A DNA stretch of 63,455 nt, the filler included, from Actinomycetota bacterium (GTDB lineage: Bacteria > Actinomycetota > Actinomycetes > JAKEEW01), in the NCBI GenBank assembly GCA_046725875.1. It is 6 parts of 6 records of this genome, joined end to end, with 100 filler letters (N's around TTAATTAATTAA, not from the genome) between each part and the next. Parts side by side here need not be neighbours in the genome. Positions count along the whole stretch, not along the records: positions 33,388 to 52,574 come from JBKOZJ010000004.1; 5 more parts are not named here. One strand, given 5' to 3'. The translations under genes were made by a program, and so were the position numbers. Positions 5,579-61,532 of the stretch are shown in pieces; positions within the stretch are counted from its first letter, which is position 1; the number at the start of each line of letters is the position of its first letter. Under the pieces are notes generated by a model. That model had not been told where the DNA came from, ran no database searches, and was given only the letters and a program-made list of their open reading frames with translations.

Positions 5579-5678
5579 NNNNNNNNNNNNNNNNNNNNNN
5601 NNNNNNNNNNNNNNNNNNNNNNTTAATTAATTAANNNNNNNNNNNNNNNNNNNNNNNNNNNNNNNNNNNNNNNNNNNN
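5579..5678. other. Artificial contig linker
   Basis: N44-TTAATTAATTAA-N44 (stops in all frames). Confidence 0.99.
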
Positions 5679-15906: not shown

Positions 15907-16006
15907 NNNNNNNNNNNNNNNNNNNNNNNNNNNNNNNNNNNNNNNNNNNNTTAATTAATTAANNNNNNNNNNNNNNNNNNNNNNNNNNNNNNNNNNNNNN
16001 NNNNNN
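15907..16006. other. Artificial contig linker
   Basis: N44-TTAATTAATTAA-N44. Confidence 0.99.
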
Positions 16007-33287: not shown

Positions 33288-33387
33288 NNNNNNNNNNNNN
33301 NNNNNNNNNNNNNNNNNNNNNNNNNNNNNNNTTAATTAATTAANNNNNNNNNNNNNNNNNNNNNNNNNNNNNNNNNNNNNNNNNNNN
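33288..33387. other. Artificial contig linker
   Basis: N44-TTAATTAATTAA-N44. Confidence 0.99.
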
Positions 33388-43197: not shown

Positions 43198-43280
43198 TCA
43201 CAGGCAGGCTTGCGCCGAAGACGGCTCCGGCCCGCCGGTGATCATGCGTGGATCGGCAGCTGGTGGGTCAGACTGTCCCG

Positions 43281-44579
43281 GTGACTTCGCGGTGGACCGA
43301 GGGTGAGGGCCGAACCCTGGCGCGGGGTTGGACCCGCAAATTCATCGTGATCGGCTCCCTCGCCCTCGCGCTCGCGGCGGTGCTCGCCGGGCTGAACTGG
43401 ACCGTTCTGGACGACGCGGGGAACGTGCCGGTGAACCCGAACCACGCGAACCGCGGTCCGCAGCCGGCCAGCTCGCCCGGCGAACCAGGACCGACGACGC
43501 CGGGCCCCGGCGCCGACCCGCCGACGTTCACCGTGCTGGTGTCGGGCGACGTGCTCCTTCGGGACACGCTGTGGACACAGGCGGCGCGTGATGCCGAGGC
43601 GCGTGGCGCGGACGGGTACGATTTCCGGCCCATGCTCGCCGGCGTTCATCGCCGGATTTCCGCGGCCGACCTGGCGATCTGCCACCTGGAGACGCCGGTG
43701 GGCGACGCTGACGGACCCTACTCCGACTATCCGGTATTCCAGGTCCCGCCGCAGATCGTGCCGGCGCTCGCCTGGGCCGGCTATGACGCGTGCACCACCG
43801 CCTCCAACCACACCCTCGATGCCGGCGCGGACGGCGTCGAACGCACGCTGAGGGCCTTCGACGCCGCCGGCATCGAGCACTCCGGCTCGGCACGGAGCGC
43901 GGAGGAGGGCAGCCGGATGACGATCCTCGCCGTGCGACTTCATCAGCGGGGCGGTGGCGCGTCGGACGCCGCCGTCCGGTTGGCCCTGCTCTCGTACACG
44001 TACGGCCTCAACGGCTTCGAAGCCCCATCGGGCAAAAGCTGGATCGTCGACACGATCGATCCAGAACAGATCCTCGCCGAGGCCGAGCAGGCGAGGAAGG
44101 CCGGCGCAGACGTGGTCCTAGTCGCGCTGCACTGGGGACGGGAGTACCGAAACCCGCCGACCGCTGACCAGCAGCGGATCGCCAAGCGCCTGCTCGCCTC
44201 ACCAGACGTCGATCTTGTCTATGGACATCACGCGCACGTGCCGCAGCCGTTCGCCAAGATCAACGGCAAGTGGGTCGCCTACGGGCTCGGCAACCACCTC
44301 GCCGAGCAAGCTACGCAGCCCGAGCGGACCCACCAGGGGGTCATGGCGCGGTTCACCTTCACCCACCGCGCCGGGGCGTGGCGAGTGAGCGCGGCTGAGT
44401 TCATCCCGACGTCGATCGGGTTGCGGCCACCGTTCCGCCTCGCTGACCTTTCCATGGTCCTGGCGCGCGACGACCTCCGCGGTGCCGATGGGGCGGCCGC
44501 GCGGCGGTCGTATGACCAAATCAGCGAGATCGTCAACAGCCTGGGGGCGGCCGAGCACGGACTCCGTCCGGCCCGCTGA
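43281..44579 (+). CDS. CapA/PGA_cap family metallophosphoesterase-like protein (copy 1)
   Basis: GDVLL, CHLETP, ASNHTLD.G, LHWG.EY, GHHAHV.QP, YGLGN. Confidence 0.92.
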   Translation: MTSRWTEGEGRTLARGWTRKFIVIGSLALALAAVLAGLNWTVLDDAGNVPVNPNHANRGPQPASSPGEPGPTTPGPGADPPTFTVLVSGDVLLRDTLWTQAARDAEARGADGYDFRPMLAGVHRRISAADLAICHLETPVGDADGPYSDYPVFQVPPQIVPALAWAGYDACTTASNHTLDAGADGVERTLRAFDAAGIEHSGSARSAEEGSRMTILAVRLHQRGGGASDAAVRLALLSYTYGLNGFEAPSGKSWIVDTIDPEQILAEAEQARKAGADVVLVALHWGREYRNPPTADQQRIAKRLLASPDVDLVYGHHAHVPQPFAKINGKWVAYGLGNHLAEQATQPERTHQGVMARFTFTHRAGAWRVSAAEFIPTSIGLRPPFRLADLSMVLARDDLRGADGAAARRSYDQISEIVNSLGAAEHGLRPAR

Positions 44580-44664
44580 TGCCGCGCCGGTCGCCACATA
44601 TTCGCCTGTCGCCACCAGAGTTCAAACGGTCACCGGCTCGGCAGCTGCAGGGCAAACTATCCGG

Positions 44665-45963
44665 GTGCCTCGAGGACAGAGTGGGTATTCGACCGAGTCG
44701 CCTCGATCGGCGGATAACCACGGGTACGCCGCGAGCCGACCGCCTCGGCCGGGTGACCTGCGACCGCTTGGTCTCGCCGCCGCCGTGGCGGGCGTCATCG
44801 CAGCCGTGCTCGCCGCCACTTCTGCCAGCGCCGGCCAGTCTGTGCAGCTTGCGGTGCCCACGAGCCCGCCGTCTTCGCCGGCGGCCGCAGCCACTCCGCT
44901 ATCACCGACGCCCGCACCTTCGCCGAGCCAGGCGGTCGAACACCCGCCTCGGCAGGTGAGTGTGGTGATGACCGGCGATGTGCTGCTGCACGACACGCTC
45001 TGGGAGCAGGCTCGGCGCGACGCGGCCGCAGTGGGGCCCAGCATGGACTTCCGGCCGATCCTCGCGTCGATGCGCCCGGTGACCTCACGTGCTGACCTGG
45101 CCATCTGCCATCTGGAGACGCCGCTCGCGCCGTCGGGCGGTCCCTACCGCGGTTATCCCGTCTTCAGCGTCCCGCCGCAGATCGCGGCGGCGCTGTCGTG
45201 GGTCGGCTACGACGGATGCACGACCGCGTCCAACCACACGCTCGACGCCGGCGAGGCGGGGGTCCGGCGCACGCTCACAGTGCTCGACCGGGCCGGCATC
45301 GCCCACTCGGGATCGGCGAGATCAAGCTCTGAGTCGGACCATCCGTTAGTGCTCGAGGCACGCGGCGTGCGGGTGGCCGTACTGTCGTACACCCAAATGC
45401 TCAATGGGCTCCGGCCGCCGCGCGGGAAGAGCTGGATCGTCAACACGATCGACCCGGAAGCGATCATCCGGGACGCCAAGCGGGCGAAGGAAGACGGCGC
45501 CGACCTCGTTCTGGTTGCGCTCCACTGGGGTGTTGAGTATCAGCACGAGCCGACACCGGACCAGCGCCGGCTCGCGCGCCGCTTGCTCGCTACGCCGGAC
45601 GTGGACCTGGTGTACGGGCACCACGCCCATGTCGTGCAGCCGTTCGAGAAGGTCGGCGATAAATGGGTCGCGTACGGGCTCGGCAACCATATCGCCGACC
45701 AGCGGGGGCTGGCCGAAGCTACCAGGGAGGGAGTGCTGGCCAGGTTCACCTTCACCGAGCGTGCGGCGGGCGGCTGGTCGGTCGCGGCCGAGTATTTGCC
45801 GACCTACATCACCTCGGGCCGGACACTGCGCGTGGTGGACCTGAGCCGCGCGCTCAACAACTCCAAGATATCGGCGGCGGCCAGCGCGGTTTACCGGCAA
45901 GCGTGGCGTCACGTGTCTGGCGACGTCGGCGGCGCCAAGGGCCTCGCGCCGGTCCGCCCGTGA
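44665..45963 (+). CDS. CapA/PGA_cap family protein (copy 2); start uncertain
   Basis: [41 protein letters not shown]. Confidence 0.88.
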
Positions 45964-48684: not shown

Positions 48685-49122
48685 TTACGAAGGCGCGCCG
48701 AGACCGGGAAAGGCAGGTGTGTGCCGGCTCCACGTCGCGACGGCGACCGCTGCTTCGCCAAGGGCCATCGCGCCGAGCTGGCGAAGGTTACGCTGGCTGC
48801 TTGCTGCGACGAGAGCCGCGTAGGCCTGGGCGACCCCGGTTTCGAGCCGGGTAGCGAGCCGGCGGGCGTCGTCGGCTGATTCGACCGGGAACGGCAGCCT
48901 GTACGCGGCTGCCGCGGCCTCAGGTTCGGCGCCGGCTCCGCGAATTGTCGCGGCCAGCTCGTCCCGCCGGCGGCGGTGGTTCTGGTCTGCCGCGGTGGCG
49001 GCGGCGAGGTCGGAGCCTTCGAGGTGGGCGCCGACGATCCCGTATCCGTAGACGGCCGCATGTTCCGCGGCGACCGCGGTCTGCAGGGCGGCCAACTCGG
49101 CAGCGGCCGGCCGGCGGCTCAT
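48685..49122 (-). CDS. Ferritin-like DUF4439 protein
   Basis: ALQ...AAEHAAVYGYG, H..RRD.L, AY.LPFPV, AFPGL. Confidence 0.9.
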   Translation of the reverse strand: MSRRPAAAELAALQTAVAAEHAAVYGYGIVGAHLEGSDLAAATAADQNHRRRRDELAATIRGAGAEPEAAAAAYRLPFPVESADDARRLATRLETGVAQAYAALVAASSQRNLRQLGAMALGEAAVAVATWSRHTPAFPGLGAPS

Positions 49123-49625
49123 GTTTGGCCCTCGGTGCGGAGGAGGACCGCATGTGCCCGCCCACATGCGGAGATCGAGGCCACGAGCGCGGCGAACACG
49201 CCGGAGCCCGCGGTACCCGCGGCGGACTGGCAGCTATTCGCCGAGGCCTCCTCGGCAGCGGCCAGAGCTCTAAGAGCGCCGCCGCGTTCGGCCGGACCCG
49301 AGGGTGCGGGCTCGCCAGTCGTCGAACGGGAGTCGGCAGTCGACGCGGTGCCCGGGAGCGCCGGCGTAGCTCCGAGCACCCCCTGAAGCGCCTCAATGTG
49401 CGCCCCCACCCGATCGATGTACGGGGCCAGCCCGGCCGCAAGCCGGGGGTGCTGCTCTGCGGTCTCTCTATACGCGGCGACCAGGCGCCGCTTCTCGGCA
49501 AGCAGCCGATCCCGCGAGCGCTGGTCGGCGCTGAGCTGCCAGCCGCGGCTACCTCCCGTACATCCGGTCAACCCCGCCACGGCGAGGACCCCCGTCGCCG
49601 CGACCATGCGGCGCCTGGTCAGCAC
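49119..49625 (-). CDS. Putative Tat-exported lipoprotein
   Basis: LTRRR signal, LTGC lipobox, ASISAC..AHA; ATGA overlap with DUF4439 gene. Confidence 0.7.
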   Translation of the reverse strand: MLTRRRMVAATGVLAVAGLTGCTGGSRGWQLSADQRSRDRLLAEKRRLVAAYRETAEQHPRLAAGLAPYIDRVGAHIEALQGVLGATPALPGTASTADSRSTTGEPAPSGPAERGGALRALAAAEEASANSCQSAAGTAGSGVFAALVASISACGRAHAVLLRTEGQT

Positions 49626-49786
49626 GACGGAGACCGTACCCCAAGTCAGCGGTTCCAGCAGGGGTCGTCCCCGCGGGCCTTGACAACGGCGGCCCTTGCA
49701 TGCGACCCGATATCGTGTAGCCCACCCTGACCCGGGAGCGGCGGGCCCGCTGCGAGACAAGACAACAGCCGAGGATAGGTCCCAAG

Positions 49787-50290
49787 ATGAGCAGGCTGCC
49801 TGCACACGACGACCTCACCACGGTGGTCGGGCCGGTTGTCGAACGGGCTGGCGCGGATCTCGAGGGTGTGCACATCAAGACCATCGGCCGCCGCACGCTC
49901 GTACAGATCTTCGTGGACGCCGACGGCGGGATCTCTCTGGACGAGATTGCCGAGATCAGTTCGGCCGTCTCGGAGGAGTTGGACAGGGTCGACCTCTTCG
50001 GCGCGGCGCCGTACACACTCGAGGTCAGCTCCCCGGGCGCCGACCGCCCCCTGACCGCGCCGCGCCATTGGCGGCGCGCCGCCGGCCGGCTGGTGAAGGC
50101 GCAGCTCGCGGCGGGTGGCGAGATCATCGGCCGGGTTGTGGAGTCCGGTGACACCGGTGTCACCCTTGATGTCGGCGGCAGCCAGCGCCGGCTGGCGTAC
50201 AACGAGATCGCCAAGGCCCGGGTGGAGGTCGAGTTCAGCCGCCCGAGCGGCACCCGGGATCTTGACGACGAGCACGACGAGGAGGAGTAG
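49787..50290 (+). CDS. rimP: Ribosome maturation factor RimP
   Basis: VD.DGGISLD, YTLEVSSPG.DRPL, ARVEVEF. Confidence 0.95.
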   Translation: MSRLPAHDDLTTVVGPVVERAGADLEGVHIKTIGRRTLVQIFVDADGGISLDEIAEISSAVSEELDRVDLFGAAPYTLEVSSPGADRPLTAPRHWRRAAGRLVKAQLAAGGEIIGRVVESGDTGVTLDVGGSQRRLAYNEIAKARVEVEFSRPSGTRDLDDEHDEEE

Positions 50291-50293
50291 TCA

Positions 50294-51274
50294 ATGGACA
50301 TCGACCTCGCCGTGCTGCGCGGCCTCGAGCGGGAGAAGGAGATACCGTTCGACCTCCTCGTCGAGGCGATCGAGTCGGCGCTGCTCACCGCGTATCACAA
50401 GACCGACCCGGATCACCCAGAGGCCCGGGTCGAGCTCGACCGCAAGACCGGCCACGTGACCGTCTACGCGCAGGAGCTGGACGAGGACGGCAACGTTGTG
50501 AACGAGTGGGACAACACACCCCACGACTTCGGTCGGATCGCCGCGACCACGGCAAAACAGGTGATCCTTCAGCGCCTGCGGGACGCCGAGGACGAGCAGA
50601 CGTACGGCGAATACGCAGGGCGCGAGGGAGACGTCGTATCCGGGATCATCCAGCAGGGCAGCGACCCCCGAATGGTGTTGGTCAACATCGGCCGGCTCGA
50701 GGCGATCTTGCCGCCGGCCGAGCAGGTCCCGGGGGAACGCTACGTACACGGCGAGCGGATCAAATGCTATGTGGTGTCGGTACGGAAGGGACTGCGCGGC
50801 CCGTCAGTGACGTTGTCCCGTACTCACCCAAACCTGGTGAAGAAGCTGTTCGCGCTGGAGGTGCCCGAGATCGCCGACGGGTCGGTGGAGATTGCGGCCA
50901 TCGCGCGTGAGGCGGGCCATCGTACGAAGATCGCAGTACGGGCCAACAGGCCGGGGATCAACGCCAAGGGGGCCTGCATCGGTCCGATGGGTGCCCGGGT
51001 TCGAAACGTGATGAGCGAGCTCCACGGGGAGAAGATCGACATTGTCGACTGGTCCGAGGACCCGGCGGAGTTCGTCGCACACGCGCTCTCGCCCGCCCAG
51101 GTGACGTCGGTGGAGATCGTAGACGCCGCGGCCAAGGCCGCCCGGGTCGTCGTCCCCGACTTCCAGCTCTCCCTGGCGATCGGCAAGGAAGGGCAGAACG
51201 CCCGGCTGGCGGCCCGGCTCACCGGCTGGCGGATCGACATTCGGCCCGACACCGAGTCGGCCGCCACGGCCTGA
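50294..51274 (+). CDS. nusA: Transcription factor NusA
   Basis: [40 protein letters not shown]. Confidence 0.98.
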
Positions 51275-51386
51275 GGACGATCCTCGGCGACCGGCCGGGT
51301 GTTCAGCAGCGCCCTAACCGAATCGTCCCGCGAGCCGTTCGGGGGGGCCTGATCGAGGGAATGCCAATGCGGGGGTAAAGTGTTCT

Positions 51387-51656
51387 ATGGCTGGTCGCGC
51401 GGCGCCGGTGCGCACGTGCGTAGGGTGCTGGATCCGGGCGGCCAAGTCTGACTTGTTGCGGGTCGTGGCGGTCGAGGGCGCATGCGTTCCCGACCCTCGC
51501 GGCCGGCTGCCGGGCCGGGGCGCTCACCTGCATCCCGACCAGGCATGTCTCGACCTCGCTGAGCGCCGTCGGGCGTTTCCGCGGGCACTTGGGGTGCCGG
51601 GGCCGCTGGATCTGAGCGTGCTCAGGGAGTATGTCGAGCAAAGGCCGTCTCGCTGA
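51387..51656 (+). CDS. ylxR: YlxR (DUF448) RNA-binding protein; probably leaderless
   Basis: P.RTCVGC, LLRVV, PGRGAHLH, RAF.RAL; TAAAGT 5 nt before ATG. Confidence 0.9.
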   Translation: MAGRAAPVRTCVGCWIRAAKSDLLRVVAVEGACVPDPRGRLPGRGAHLHPDQACLDLAERRRAFPRALGVPGPLDLSVLREYVEQRPSR

Positions 51657-51804
51657 TGCTAGCGGCGGTCCACGGTCGCCCTTCCACCCCGACACTCGGC
51701 GGTGGACGGCGGTCTTGGGCGGCTGACCGGGCGTCGGCGATTTCTCGGCACGTGGCAGGTCCCGGCCGCAGAAGGCGTCATAACAGGGTTAGGACGAGTA
51801 ACCG

Positions 51805-51874
51805 ATGAGCGCTCGATGAGCACGCAGCGATGAGTACTCGCATGCACTAGCGGCCCGCGAGCTGATCCGGGCCG
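51805..51874 (+). promoter_or_regulatory. infB leader: three ATGA-overlapped mini-ORFs followed by a hairpin
   Basis: MSAR* 51805-51819, MSTQR* 51816-51833, MSTRMH* 51830-51850; stem CGGCCCG/CGGGCCG 51851-51874; SD AAGGAG 51877-51882. Confidence 0.7.
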
Positions 51875-51886
51875 AGAAGGAGAGCA

Positions 51887-52574
51887 GTGGCAAAGGTCCG
51901 GGTTTATGAGCTCGCCAAGGAGTTTGGCGTCGAGAGCAAGGTCGTTATGGCCAAGCTCCAAGAGCTTGGTGAATTCGTTCGTTCCGCGTCCTCGACGATC
52001 GAGGCGCCGGTTGTACGCAAATTGAAGGAAGCCTTCCCGGTGGGCGTTGCGCCCACCGACGGCGCGGCGCAGGGTGACGGCGCCGTGGCAGCGAAGCCTG
52101 CCGCGAAGAAGGGTGCCGCCAAGAAGACCACGGCCAAGAAGACCGCCGCAGCGCCGGAAGTCGCGGCGGCGGGCCCGATGGCCCCGGCCGAGCCCGAGCA
52201 GGCCATCCCGCCGACCCCGGCCCGACCGGCCCCACCCGTCCCGGGGCCAGGCGAGGATGGCGGTCGTCCCACGGCTCCGCGGCCGGGTCCGATCCCAGGC
52301 GTGCCGACCACCCCCCGGCCAGGCGAATGGCCCGGCCAGGGCCGTCCGGTTCCCGGCGCCATCCCCCGCCCGGCCGGCCCGCGTCCCGGCAACAATCCGT
52401 TCACGTCAAGCACGGGCATGTCTCGGCCTGCCGCGCGTCAGCCGCGCCCTGGTGCACCGGGAGCTCCAGGCGCTGGCCGCGCCGGCGGCGTCCCGCCGGG
52501 CGCGCCCCGCCCCGGTAGCTCGGCCGGTGGGCCTCGGCCTACTCCCGGCGAAATGCCGCCCAGGCCGGCTCGTC
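51887..52574 (+). CDS. infB: Translation initiation factor IF-2, 5' part (cut by contig end)
   Basis: [40 protein letters not shown]. Confidence 0.97.
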
Positions 52575-52674
52575 NNNNNNNNNNNNNNNNNNNNNNNNNN
52601 NNNNNNNNNNNNNNNNNNTTAATTAATTAANNNNNNNNNNNNNNNNNNNNNNNNNNNNNNNNNNNNNNNNNNNN
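52575..52674. other. Artificial contig linker
   Basis: N44-TTAATTAATTAA-N44. Confidence 0.99.
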
Positions 52675-53787
52675 CGGGGCGCGGATCTCGTCGACCAGGT
52701 AGGGGCGCATCACGACGCCATTGTTTGCGACCCCGGCGGCGACCATTGCCATCTGCAGCGGTGTCACCGCTACGTCGAACTGTCCGATCGCCGACTGGGC
52801 CGTCTGCGGCTTGTCGGGGTTGGCCGGGAAGCGGCTGGTCGCGGCCTGCATCGGCACGTCGAGGTCGGCGCCGAAGCCGAACTTCTCCGCCTGGCTGCGC
52901 AACTTGTCGCCGCCCAGCTCGAGGCCGAGCCCGGCGAAGGCCGTGTTGCAGGAGATCCGCAGCGCGTTGGCGATCGTCGTCTTGTCGCCAGGACCGCACG
53001 GCTGGCCGTCGTAGTTGGGAAGGTCATGCGTGGTCTGCGGCAAGTCGAGCGTTGCGGGGGCCGCCACGTCCGTGTCGGGCTTCCAGCGGCGTGACGGATC
53101 GCTGAGCGCAGCAGCCGAGGTTATGATCTTGAAAGTGGAGCCGGGCGGATAGAGCTCCGCGAGGGGCCGATTGAGCATCGGCTTGTCCGGGTCGTCGTTC
53201 AGCCTGCGATATGCGTCGTTTGCCTCCTCGACATCGTGCGTGGAGAGGCGGTTCGGGTCGAACGACGGTGAGGAGACCAGCGCGAGAATCGCGCCCGTGC
53301 TCGGGTCGAGTGCGACCACCGCACCGCGCTTGCCCTGCATCGCACCCCAGGCCGCCTGCTGCGCGCGCGGGTCGAGTGTGAGAGAGACGCTGCCGCCTTC
53401 GGGCGACTTTTGAGTCACGAGGTCGATGAGCCGGCGTACGAAGAACTCGTCGGCGGTTCCGGCAAGGTAGGAGTTCTCCTGGCGCTCTATCCCGGACCGG
53501 CCGAAGATCGGCGAGTAGAAGCCGGTGGCGGGCGCATACATCGGGCCGTCGGGGTAGACCCGCAGGAACTTCAGCTCCCCGCTGGTCTCCTTCGACGTGG
53601 CGATCGGGCGATTCGCCACCAGGATCGGCCCGCGCGCCCGGGAATACTCGTCAAGCAGCGACCGCCGGTTCAGGGGGTTGTCCTTGTACTCGTCGGCCTT
53701 TACCACCTGCAGATAGTTGACGTTTGCCAGCAGGAGCAGGAACAGCAGCAGGCAGGCGGCGGCGACGCGGCGCAATGGCTTGTTCAT
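52675..53787 (-). CDS. pbpA: Class B penicillin-binding protein, 5' part
   Basis: MNKPLRRV TM, YPPGSTFK (SxxK), SCNTAF (SxN); 141-bp end identical to 33147-33287. Confidence 0.96.
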
Positions 53788-55181
53788 GCCTTCATCACCT
53801 GGGTCGGAGCCTCCATGACGGCAGGTACGGGCGGCGGTGCCGGCGCCCGAGCCGCGTTGCTGATGCGCAGCAGCAGCGCGACGAGCGCCCAGTTGGCAAC
53901 CAGGGACGAGCCACCATACGACAGGAACGGCGTGGTCAGGCCGGTGAGCGGGACCAGCCGCGTCACCCCGCCGATGACCACGAAAAGCTGTAGGGCCAGC
54001 GACATTGCGAGGCCGGCGGCGAGCAGCTTGCCGAACGGATCGCGGACAGCCAAGGCAGTGCGCAGGCCGCGCTCGACCAGGATCGCGAACAGGATGAGTA
54101 CGGCCATCACGCCGGTCAGGCCGAGTTCCTCCCCGATCGTGGCCACGATGAAGTCCGTCTTCGCGTACGGAACGCGTTCCGGCCGGCCCTGCCCGAGCCC
54201 CGTACCGAGGATCCCGCCAGTGGCCAGCCCGAAGAGGCCCTCAAGCAGCTGACCGCTGCCACCGATCCGGTGATAGTACGGCCAGGGGTCCAGCCAGATG
54301 TCCACCCGCCGGGCGACGTGCCCGAAGAAGGCGTACGACCCCAGCGCACCGGTCGCGAAGAGGAGGAACCCGAACAAGAGCCAGGACAGCCGTTCAGTGG
54401 CGATGTAGAGCAGGATCACGAAGACGCCGAAGAACAGCAGCGACGTACCCAGGTCGCGCTCCCGGATCAGAATCAGCAGGCTGACCGCCCAGGCAACGAG
54501 GATCGGGCCGAGGTCACGGCCGCGCGGCAGGTCGATACCGAGCACGCGCCGGCTCGCCAGGGCGAGCACGTCCCGCTTCGCCATCAGGTAACCAGCGAAG
54601 AAGATGATGAGCAGCAGCTTCGCGAACTCGCCCGGCTGGATCGAGAAGCCGAAGGCGCGGATCCAGATCCGTGCGCCGTTCACCTCGGAGATGCGCGCCG
54701 GCAGCAGTGCGGGTAGGGCGAGCAACCCGATGCCGACGAACATCGCGGTGTACGCATACCGCCCGAGTGACCGGTGGTTTCGGACCACAACCAGGACGAG
54801 TACGAACAGGAGGATCCCGATTGCGGTCCATGCCAGCTGCAGCCGTACGTCCTCCGACGGCGCGGGCCGCCCGTTCCGCGCGGCCCGCTCGGCCTCGGCG
54901 AGGTCAAGTCGGTGGATGAGGACGAGACCGAGCCCGTTCAGAGCGGTGACCGTCGGGAGGAGCAGGGGATCCGCGTACGGCGCGAACTTCCGGACAACGA
55001 GGTGGGCGATGAGGACCATCGCCCCGAGTCCAGCCCCGTAGGCCACGAGGTCGGGCGGGAGGGTGCCGTCGACCCCGAGGCCGACCGCAGCATAGGCGGC
55101 CATGGCCAGCACGATCGCGAAGACGAGCAATCCCGCCTCCACGCCGCGCCGCGTCTCGACAGCCGGTGTCGCAGTAGTCAA
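53784..55181 (-). CDS. rodA: SEDS-family peptidoglycan polymerase RodA/FtsW
   Basis: PYADP.LLP, SIQPGEFAK, RDLGTSLL, TDFI, PLTGLT.PFLSYGGSS. Confidence 0.95.
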   Translation of the reverse strand: MTTATPAVETRRGVEAGLLVFAIVLAMAAYAAVGLGVDGTLPPDLVAYGAGLGAMVLIAHLVVRKFAPYADPLLLPTVTALNGLGLVLIHRLDLAEAERAARNGRPAPSEDVRLQLAWTAIGILLFVLVLVVVRNHRSLGRYAYTAMFVGIGLLALPALLPARISEVNGARIWIRAFGFSIQPGEFAKLLLIIFFAGYLMAKRDVLALASRRVLGIDLPRGRDLGPILVAWAVSLLILIRERDLGTSLLFFGVFVILLYIATERLSWLLFGFLLFATGALGSYAFFGHVARRVDIWLDPWPYYHRIGGSGQLLEGLFGLATGGILGTGLGQGRPERVPYAKTDFIVATIGEELGLTGVMAVLILFAILVERGLRTALAVRDPFGKLLAAGLAMSLALQLFVVIGGVTRLVPLTGLTTPFLSYGGSSLVANWALVALLLRISNAARAPAPPPVPAVMEAPTQVMKA

Positions 55182-61432: not shown

Positions 61433-61532
61433 NNNNNNNNNNNNNNNNNNNNNNNNNNNNNNNNNNNNNNNNNNNNTTAATTAATTAANNNNNNNNNNNN
61501 NNNNNNNNNNNNNNNNNNNNNNNNNNNNNNNN
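61433..61532. other. Artificial contig linker
   Basis: N44-TTAATTAATTAA-N44. Confidence 0.99.

Follow-up and report, generated by a model that had tools for sequence, protein, structure and literature searches.

Attenuation of ermC, cat and cmlA depends on a short leader open reading frame (ORF) and on an RNA strand that either sits in a leader hairpin or covers the downstream ribosome-binding site (RBS). In yeast, GCN4 is preceded by tiny upstream ORFs (uORFs), at which the efficiency of reinitiation reads out the supply of the factor that delivers initiator tRNA, while infC, which codes for initiation factor IF3, is autoregulated through its AUU start codon. Known overlapping gene pairs, as described by Huber et al. 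(2019, 2023; PMC6728339, PMC10666635), couple two protein-coding genes for stoichiometry, and the uORF attenuator of whiB7/wblC is described as acting on transcription via a rho-independent terminator (PMC10727445, PMC7157823). The element that we describe here lies directly upstream of infB, the gene for initiation factor 2 (IF2), in a 63,455-nucleotide (nt) stretch of DNA, filler included (the window in the rest of the text), from an Actinomycetota bacterium (assembly GCA_046725875.1). It consists of three mini-ORFs chained by ATGA start/stop overlaps, a hairpin next to the last stop codon and a second pairing partner for that hairpin inside the first codons of infB. The level of IF2 relative to ribosomes is held steady; we know of no described mechanism of IF2 autoregulation, and neither infB autoregulation nor a description of mini-ORFs before infB was found in the literature searched. 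The arrangement has the appearance of a control element, so far undescribed, that acts on an essential translation factor.

All parts of the element lie on the plus strand. Mini-ORF1 (51805-51819; ATG AGC GCT CGA TGA) codes for MSAR*, mini-ORF2 (51816-51833; ATG AGC ACG CAG CGA TGA) for MSTQR* and mini-ORF3 (51830-51850; ATG AGT ACT CGC ATG CAC TAG) for MSTRMH*. Each downstream start overlaps the preceding stop in an ATGA, both junctions read CG-ATGA-G, and the ORFs occupy three different frames, with stops that cover all three. Directly 3′ of the ORF3 stop, arm a (CGGCCCG, 51851-51857) pairs with arm b (CGGGCCG, 51868-51874) across a 10-nt loop (51858-51867) to form hairpin A. The infB Shine-Dalgarno (SD) sequence AAGGAG follows at 51877-51882, where a GGAG-type sequence is kept at the same place in alignment A2, and the GTG start codon lies at 51887. 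A first-pass annotation, made from the sequence alone, had laid out the mini-ORFs, their overlaps, the stem, AAGGAG and GTG, all of which proved exact to the base. As in the known overlapping gene pairs (PMC6728339, PMC10666635), both junctions are −4 overlaps; unlike in those pairs, the partners here are ORFs of 3-8 codons with unconserved peptides, chained at least twice and ending at a hairpin.

The conservation of the chain was assessed in a genome scan with IF2 residues 1-70 as the query, which matched at least 599 stretches, at least 508 of them encoding a relative. We compared the best 80 of these at least 508 relatives, ranked by similarity of the IF2 N-terminus (numbered L001 onwards), with the window, giving 81 sequences; mycobacteria, corynebacteria and others with a different IF2 N-terminus fall outside this set. 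Streptomyces-like loci account for 63 of the 80, Actinomadura for 4 and Sphaerisporangium for 2, and further loci come from Kitasatospora, Actinopolymorpha, metagenome-assembled genomes (MAGs) of Streptosporangiaceae, Frankiaceae and Sporichthyaceae, and several unclassified MAGs. At 93% identity the 81 sequences form 24 clusters, corresponding to about 15 lineages from several orders. The chain stands directly before infB in 81/81 sequences, including the 80/80 loci from outside the window, in keeping with ATGA-linked runs that the first-pass annotation had suggested for other actinobacteria. Three starts, all of them ATG, and both overlap stops are likewise present in all 81, every junction being a −4 or −1 overlap (junction 1 is the −1 variant TGATG in L005 and L053). 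Conservation of the overlaps against that of the peptides had been proposed as a test of the element, and its outcome is clear-cut: the overlaps are present throughout and the peptides vary, codon 4 of ORF2 being Q, P, R, Y, E or absent and codon 2 being Ser, Asn, Thr or Arg. The claim that all three peptides begin Met-Ser thus holds in the window but not in lineages with Asn, Thr or Arg at codon 2; the kept feature of the starts is ATGA(G), not Ser.

Taken alone, the chain within the window is weak evidence. The window holds one chain of at least three ATGA-linked ATG mini-ORFs (12 codons at most), and such a chain occurred somewhere in 42 of 300 dinucleotide shuffles of the window, a count that would suit a chance arrangement without function. 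Chance fails on conservation: the chain recurs at the same place in 81/81 sequences of distant genera, while the spacer neighbouring the ORF track cannot be aligned across lineages. We consider the probability of a chance arrangement to be practically negligible.

Length variation points to what is being kept. ATG1 and ATG2 are 11 nt apart in 80 sequences and 8 nt apart in the remaining one; for ATG2 and ATG3 the distance is 14 nt (17 sequences) or 11 nt (64 sequences). Spacing of 11/11 is confined to the 64 Streptomyces/Kitasatospora-like sequences, whereas the 17 others, the window included, have 11/14 in 16 cases and 8/14 in L025. From ATG3 to the final stop (TAG in 74 sequences, TGA in 4 and TAA in 3) we counted 15, 18 or 21 nt in 80/81 sequences and 29 nt in the Kitasatospora locus L061. 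All length differences within the ORF track are multiples of 3, save an 11-nt insertion in L061 (approximately 1400-1455) that amounts to a fourth, degenerate repeat unit (GATGGG); this insertion creates an extra ATGA link (an 8-codon ORF, then MK*), so that the chain still ends at the usual TAG. The spacer between the final stop and GTG comes in 15 lengths (39-87 nt), with residues modulo 3 of 36/24/21. Going by the frame-preserving insertions and deletions in the ORF track, the reading frames appear to be the conserved feature. In two MAG lineages, L001 (857-1402) and L008 (465-1427), ORF1 is the tail of ylxR itself, whose frame extends to the first ATGA junction and ends in '...MSAR*'. Here a real gene is overlapped by ATG2 in a classical −4 arrangement, as in overlapping gene pairs; at the other loci the ylxR stop lies 22 to about 150 nt ahead of ATG1.

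These data also bear on the idea that three units of about 11 nt, CGAUGAG, bind a protein and that the ORFs are a by-product of tandem repetition, the candidates being YlxR, the KH domains of NusA or S1 on RNA, or a direct-repeat regulator on DNA. The CG before ATGA and the G after it are kept though neither is needed for a start or a stop, spacing is exactly 11/11 in Streptomyces, and the gene directly upstream, ylxR, codes for an RNA-binding protein. Operators of the OmpR/PhoP type keep their direct repeats at one helical turn (11-bp phasing). Unlike in such operators, the spacing departs from 11/11 in every sequence that is not Streptomyces/Kitasatospora-like, and because it shifts only in steps of 3 nt it fits reading frames rather than helical phasing or a fixed protein register. 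In addition, the in-frame final stop stays beside the hairpin although the sequence of ORF3 varies, and in two lineages ylxR itself stops at the first junction. We therefore hold protein-binding repeats to be distinctly unlikely. CGATGAG occurs 31 times in the window against 15.1 expected, a number that 0 of 100 shuffles reached, and 3 copies are packed within 32 nt at the mini-ORF track; codon usage may cause the window-wide excess. Likeness of GAUGAG to hammerhead, k-turn and box C/D motifs was considered by eye and rejected, as there was no Rfam match and most lineages have CGAUGAG rather than CUGAUGA. An Rfam cmscan of 49000-54000 with E-values up to 10 returned 6 weak matches, all below gathering scores and none within 51657-51900.

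Upstream of the chain, a conserved box (51785-51804) contains AGGA (51791-51794) 10 nt ahead of ATG1, and a block RGG-YSAG is kept about 14 nt 5′ of ATG1 (alignments A1 and A3); the AGGA may serve as a weak, distant SD. CGAG at 51795-51798 can pair with CTCG at 51812-51815, in junction 1, placing ATG1 in a 13-nt loop. RNAalifold predicts this 4-bp helix, which is kept in 13-14 of 16 rows, and in L005 both sides have changed (TCAG with CTGA) with pairing retained. In the ylxR-ORF1 spacer of the Streptomyces loci L006, L041 and L065 (approximately 1360-1385) we also observed a small hairpin upstream of the box, with compensating differences between species (GCACGG/CCGTGC versus GCGCGG/CCGCGC; alignment A1). 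Pairing of arm b with an AGGTC box before ORF1 was rejected after inspection by eye, since it fits Streptomyces but not the window (AGGAC versus CGGGCC).

Hairpin A is the RNAalifold consensus structure, and in none of 15 lineages did more than 6.7% of 300 shuffles match its stability. The gap between the final stop and the hairpin is 0-4 nt in 15/15 representatives, while the length and sequence of the loop vary freely between lineages. Covariation of the stem had been suggested as a further check: the hairpin is kept with compensatory changes, one pair exchanging between U-A (10), C-G (3) and U-G (3) and L061 having A-U for G-C, and its covariation score was reached by 47 of 500 column shuffles. 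Between the ORF3 stop and hairpin A, five loci (L001, L031, L068, L070 and L073) have an additional hairpin of some 30 nt, immediately 3′ of the stop; the 3′ arm of this additional hairpin again has a CCGGACC-like sequence.

Arm a, GGTCCGG in most lineages, matches infB codons 3-5 (AAG GTC CGG), so that arm b can pair either with a or with infB positions +9 to +18. In the window this second partner, a′, is GGTCCGGGTT (51895-51904), inside infB codons 3-6; it is complementary to b, which with extra 5′ bases (51864-51873) forms the predicted helix B. Helix B has 10 bp including 3 G-U pairs and a calculated stability of −15.5 kcal/mol, against −15.7 kcal/mol for hairpin A. The two structures lie within 2 kcal/mol of each other in 7/15 representatives, and in Streptomyces helix B is favoured over hairpin A by 5-8 kcal/mol. 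Over 10 alignment columns 86% of the cells are paired, and L008 shows a double change from C-G to G-C, made on the infB side by a synonymous change of CGG to CGC. Codon 4 of infB is fixed as GTC in 14/15 lineages (background use 0.51) and codon 5 as CGG in 13/15 (background use 0.25), while the third base of codons 2, 6, 7 and 8 varies freely. From this complementarity, for which the support is moderate, we propose that pairing of b with a′ would be the physical route by which a relay along the mini-ORFs acts on the infB RBS. As in erm/cat attenuation, a short leader ORF, here a putative one, is combined with alternative pairings, here predicted ones. The leader differs from erm/cat in having three segments rather than four and three chained ORFs; there is no conserved arrest peptide among its variable 3-8 residues, a ribosome at the leader end is predicted to close the RBS rather than open it, and the target is a housekeeping initiation factor rather than a resistance gene. 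We also considered folding energy as a measure of RBS sequestration and rejected it. The minimum free energy (MFE) structure encloses the RBS in 70/81 sequences, but 39-77% of shuffled leaders do likewise with a similar opening free energy (ddG), so MFE enclosure is not evidence.

The reading that we tentatively favour, at somewhat less than an even chance, is that ribosomes translating the mini-ORFs in a termination-reinitiation relay switch this two-state structure and so adjust infB translation to initiation capacity, with negative feedback on IF2. Ribosomes would enter at ATG1, or come straight from ylxR where that gene ends at the first ATGA, and would pass along the three mini-ORFs by termination-reinitiation at ATGA overlaps that have no SD of their own. 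Initiation at SD-less (leaderless) AUGs is described as enhanced by IF1/IF2 and strongly so by fMet-tRNA (PMC9031893). Because initiation at SD-less AUGs draws strongly on IF2 and fMet-tRNA, a steep rise with initiation capacity would be expected in the share of ribosomes that get as far as the last stop. Termination-reinitiation coupling is reported to need a −4 or −1 overlap and to be almost abolished at about 20 nt (PMC10666635); the last stop is 39-87 nt from GTG, so the relay could not simply enter infB and a structural link would be needed. A ribosome terminating next to hairpin A would melt arm a, and the freed arm b would pair with a′ and lock the SD and GTG in a closed loop. With few ribosomes completing the relay, hairpin A would retain b and the infB RBS would stay open. 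The net result would be that initiation capacity feeds back negatively on IF2 synthesis. IF1 and IF2 are said, in work attributed to Karimi et al. in 1998, to stimulate drop-off of short peptidyl-tRNAs, which we take as a lead for a link between the ORFs and IF2, not as evidence.

The same anatomy fits a positive effect, in which the relay would cycle ribosomal subunits on an unstructured, AUG-rich track beside a structured RBS (standby-like) or open structure, thereby raising infB translation. Ribosome standby at structured RBSs is described as an established idea (PMC5934652), and in Streptomyces coelicolor infB is far more translated than its operon neighbours, with ribosome profiling (Ribo-seq) values in the first growth phase of 2693 for infB, 276 for nusA and 10.9 for ylxR in the data of PMC4895711. 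Against positive coupling stands the same 39-87-nt distance, well past the point at which reinitiation coupling is nearly lost, and by its geometry a terminating ribosome should reach arm a, not arm b, and hence be unable to open helix B. We judge it unlikely.

Transcript data for S. coelicolor place the leader inside a transcript. There ylxR ends at 6216304 and infB starts at 6216466, and the tables of PMC4895711 list no transcription start site (TSS) between the two, the upstream TSSs being at 6216001 and 6214288; the leader would thus be intercistronic. The sole 5′ end assigned there to infB is 6216485, at +20 in the gene. This position sits just 3′ of the a′ segment, and inspection of the Streptomyces loci by eye shows no −10-like sequence ahead of the corresponding site; processing of the transcript or protection by structure may account for this 5′ end. 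No promoter-like site that could start a transcript at ATG1, and so make ORF1 leaderless, was found in the window leader or in L003 with a simple sigma-70 scan, which may miss actinobacterial promoters. An intercistronic position, together with an intergenic region of 73-231 nt across loci and stops in all three frames, would also suit a housekeeping role without sensing, leader translation guarding the GC-rich spacer from Rho or RNases, or the stops insulating infB. Such a shield leaves unexplained the strict ATGA chaining and the ATG at all three starts in 81/81 sequences, as well as the last stop fixed at the hairpin and the frozen synonymous sites of infB, and we regard it as very unlikely.

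Several results weigh against a relay that controls infB negatively. ORF1 lacks a good SD at normal spacing, and the much higher Ribo-seq signal of infB than of ylxR in S. coelicolor indicates that infB is translated mainly from its own SD and that the flux from ylxR is small. In Streptomyces the stem begins 4 nt past the stop, where a terminating ribosome may open only the base of the stem. Taken as a whole, the intergenic region is no more stably folded than its shuffles (z −0.67), the covariation of hairpin A rests on soft statistics, and that of helix B consists of one double change, reached by 28 of 500 column shuffles. The ddG for opening the RBS falls within the range of shuffled leaders (18 to 197 of 200 shuffles were at least as low), and only in 6/15 lineages does the count of 3′-arm bases re-pairing with the RBS exceed that of at least 90% of shuffles; this count is ordinary in the five-locus clade with the extra hairpin. 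The dominance of Streptomyces-like loci means that few lineages are independent. Finally, no ribosome profiling or reporter data on translation of the mini-ORFs were found in the literature searched. Searches of the Mycobacterium tuberculosis Ribo-RET (retapamulin-assisted ribosome profiling) tables of PMC9094748, made without that genome's sequence and in a species that may lack the element, brought up nothing near infB and one unrelated MSTR* at 3323531.

The two-state structure would apply equally to a stress attenuator of the erm/cat type, in which stalling, caused by antibiotics or by a shortage of a factor such as release factor RF2 or tRNA-Arg, shifts the balance between a:b and b:a′. 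Ribosome stress would then induce infB, with stalling rather than the IF2 level as the signal. A CGA codon precedes the overlap stop at junction 1 in 79/81 sequences and at junction 2 in 80/81, CGA being a rare Arg codon that makes up 0.05 of Arg codons in the compared loci. Leader ORFs that control whiB7 are known in actinobacteria, and a WhiB7 chromatin immunoprecipitation (ChIP) peak is tabulated upstream of infB in M. abscessus (PMC10727445). The infB leader, as proposed here, and that of whiB7/wblC are alike in that ORFs in an actinobacterial leader would monitor the condition of the ribosome. They differ in that no terminator-like site was detected before infB, either in the window (51600-51950), where the hairpin is followed by AGAAGGAG, or in L003 (1300-1560); this argues against a transcription attenuator of the trp or whiB7 type, with its GC hairpin and U run. 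The mini-ORF peptides are also too short for the exit tunnel and are not conserved, and we consider stalling-driven attenuation rather unlikely.

Returning to negative feedback by a relay, its strongest form, which we regard as doubtful, is that the leader is an "initiation-capacity meter" and the missing autoregulator of IF2, conserved across Actinomycetes. With two or three SD-less reinitiations in series, the need for IF2 and fMet-tRNA would be compounded from one to the next, and the resulting steep, counter-like signal would flip the near-isoenergetic switch between a:b and b:a′ at the infB start. The likeness to GCN4 would be one of logic only, by analogy, with several tiny upstream ORFs and reinitiation as the readout; the yeast system belongs to eukaryotes, works by scanning and lacks an RNA switch, and its uORFs stand apart from one another instead of overlapping. 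As with infC, an initiation factor would control its own synthesis via a factor-dependent start site, but infC has a single abnormal start on the gene itself, whereas the SD and GTG of infB are normal and the sensitive starts would sit in a leader apart from the gene. If this proposal is correct, the leader would do in a prokaryote, in logic, what the uORFs do for GCN4, and would stand alongside the autoregulation of IF3 through AUU. It would also provide a case from nature in which chained termination-reinitiation serves sensing instead of subunit stoichiometry. A leader so compact and conserved would make the question of IF2 autoregulation directly testable in Streptomyces with simple reporters, and its three overlapping starts form a clean system in which to study reinitiation at SD-less AUGs in vivo. 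Genome annotation gains a conserved functional element in the ylxR-infB region, which is now blank in thousands of actinomycete genomes.

The window consists of separate contigs joined by five linkers (5579-5678, 15907-16006, 33288-33387, 52575-52674 and 61433-61532), each of which is made of 12 bases flanked by two runs of 44 N. Around the element, Pfam matches give the gene order proS (ProS), rimP (RimP), nusA (NusA), ylxR and infB. The gene upstream of the leader, ylxR (DUF448), spans 51387-51656 on the plus strand (Pfam YlxR, E 1.1e-19). On the same strand, infB (51887-52574; Pfam IF2_N, E 6.5e-14) is represented by its first 229 codons, the remainder being lost at the linker that begins at 52575; its start is GTG in 15/15 tabulated lineages. 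Elsewhere in the window, the minus strand between 52675 and 57949 appears by eye to code for a penicillin-binding transpeptidase, FtsW/RodA, a PP2C phosphatase and two FHA-domain proteins, which together make up the cell-division cluster typical of actinobacteria. On the plus strand at 43248-45963, neighbouring ORFs coding for 443 and 493 aa clearly resemble each other, by eye, in their C-terminal halves, as tandem paralogues do.

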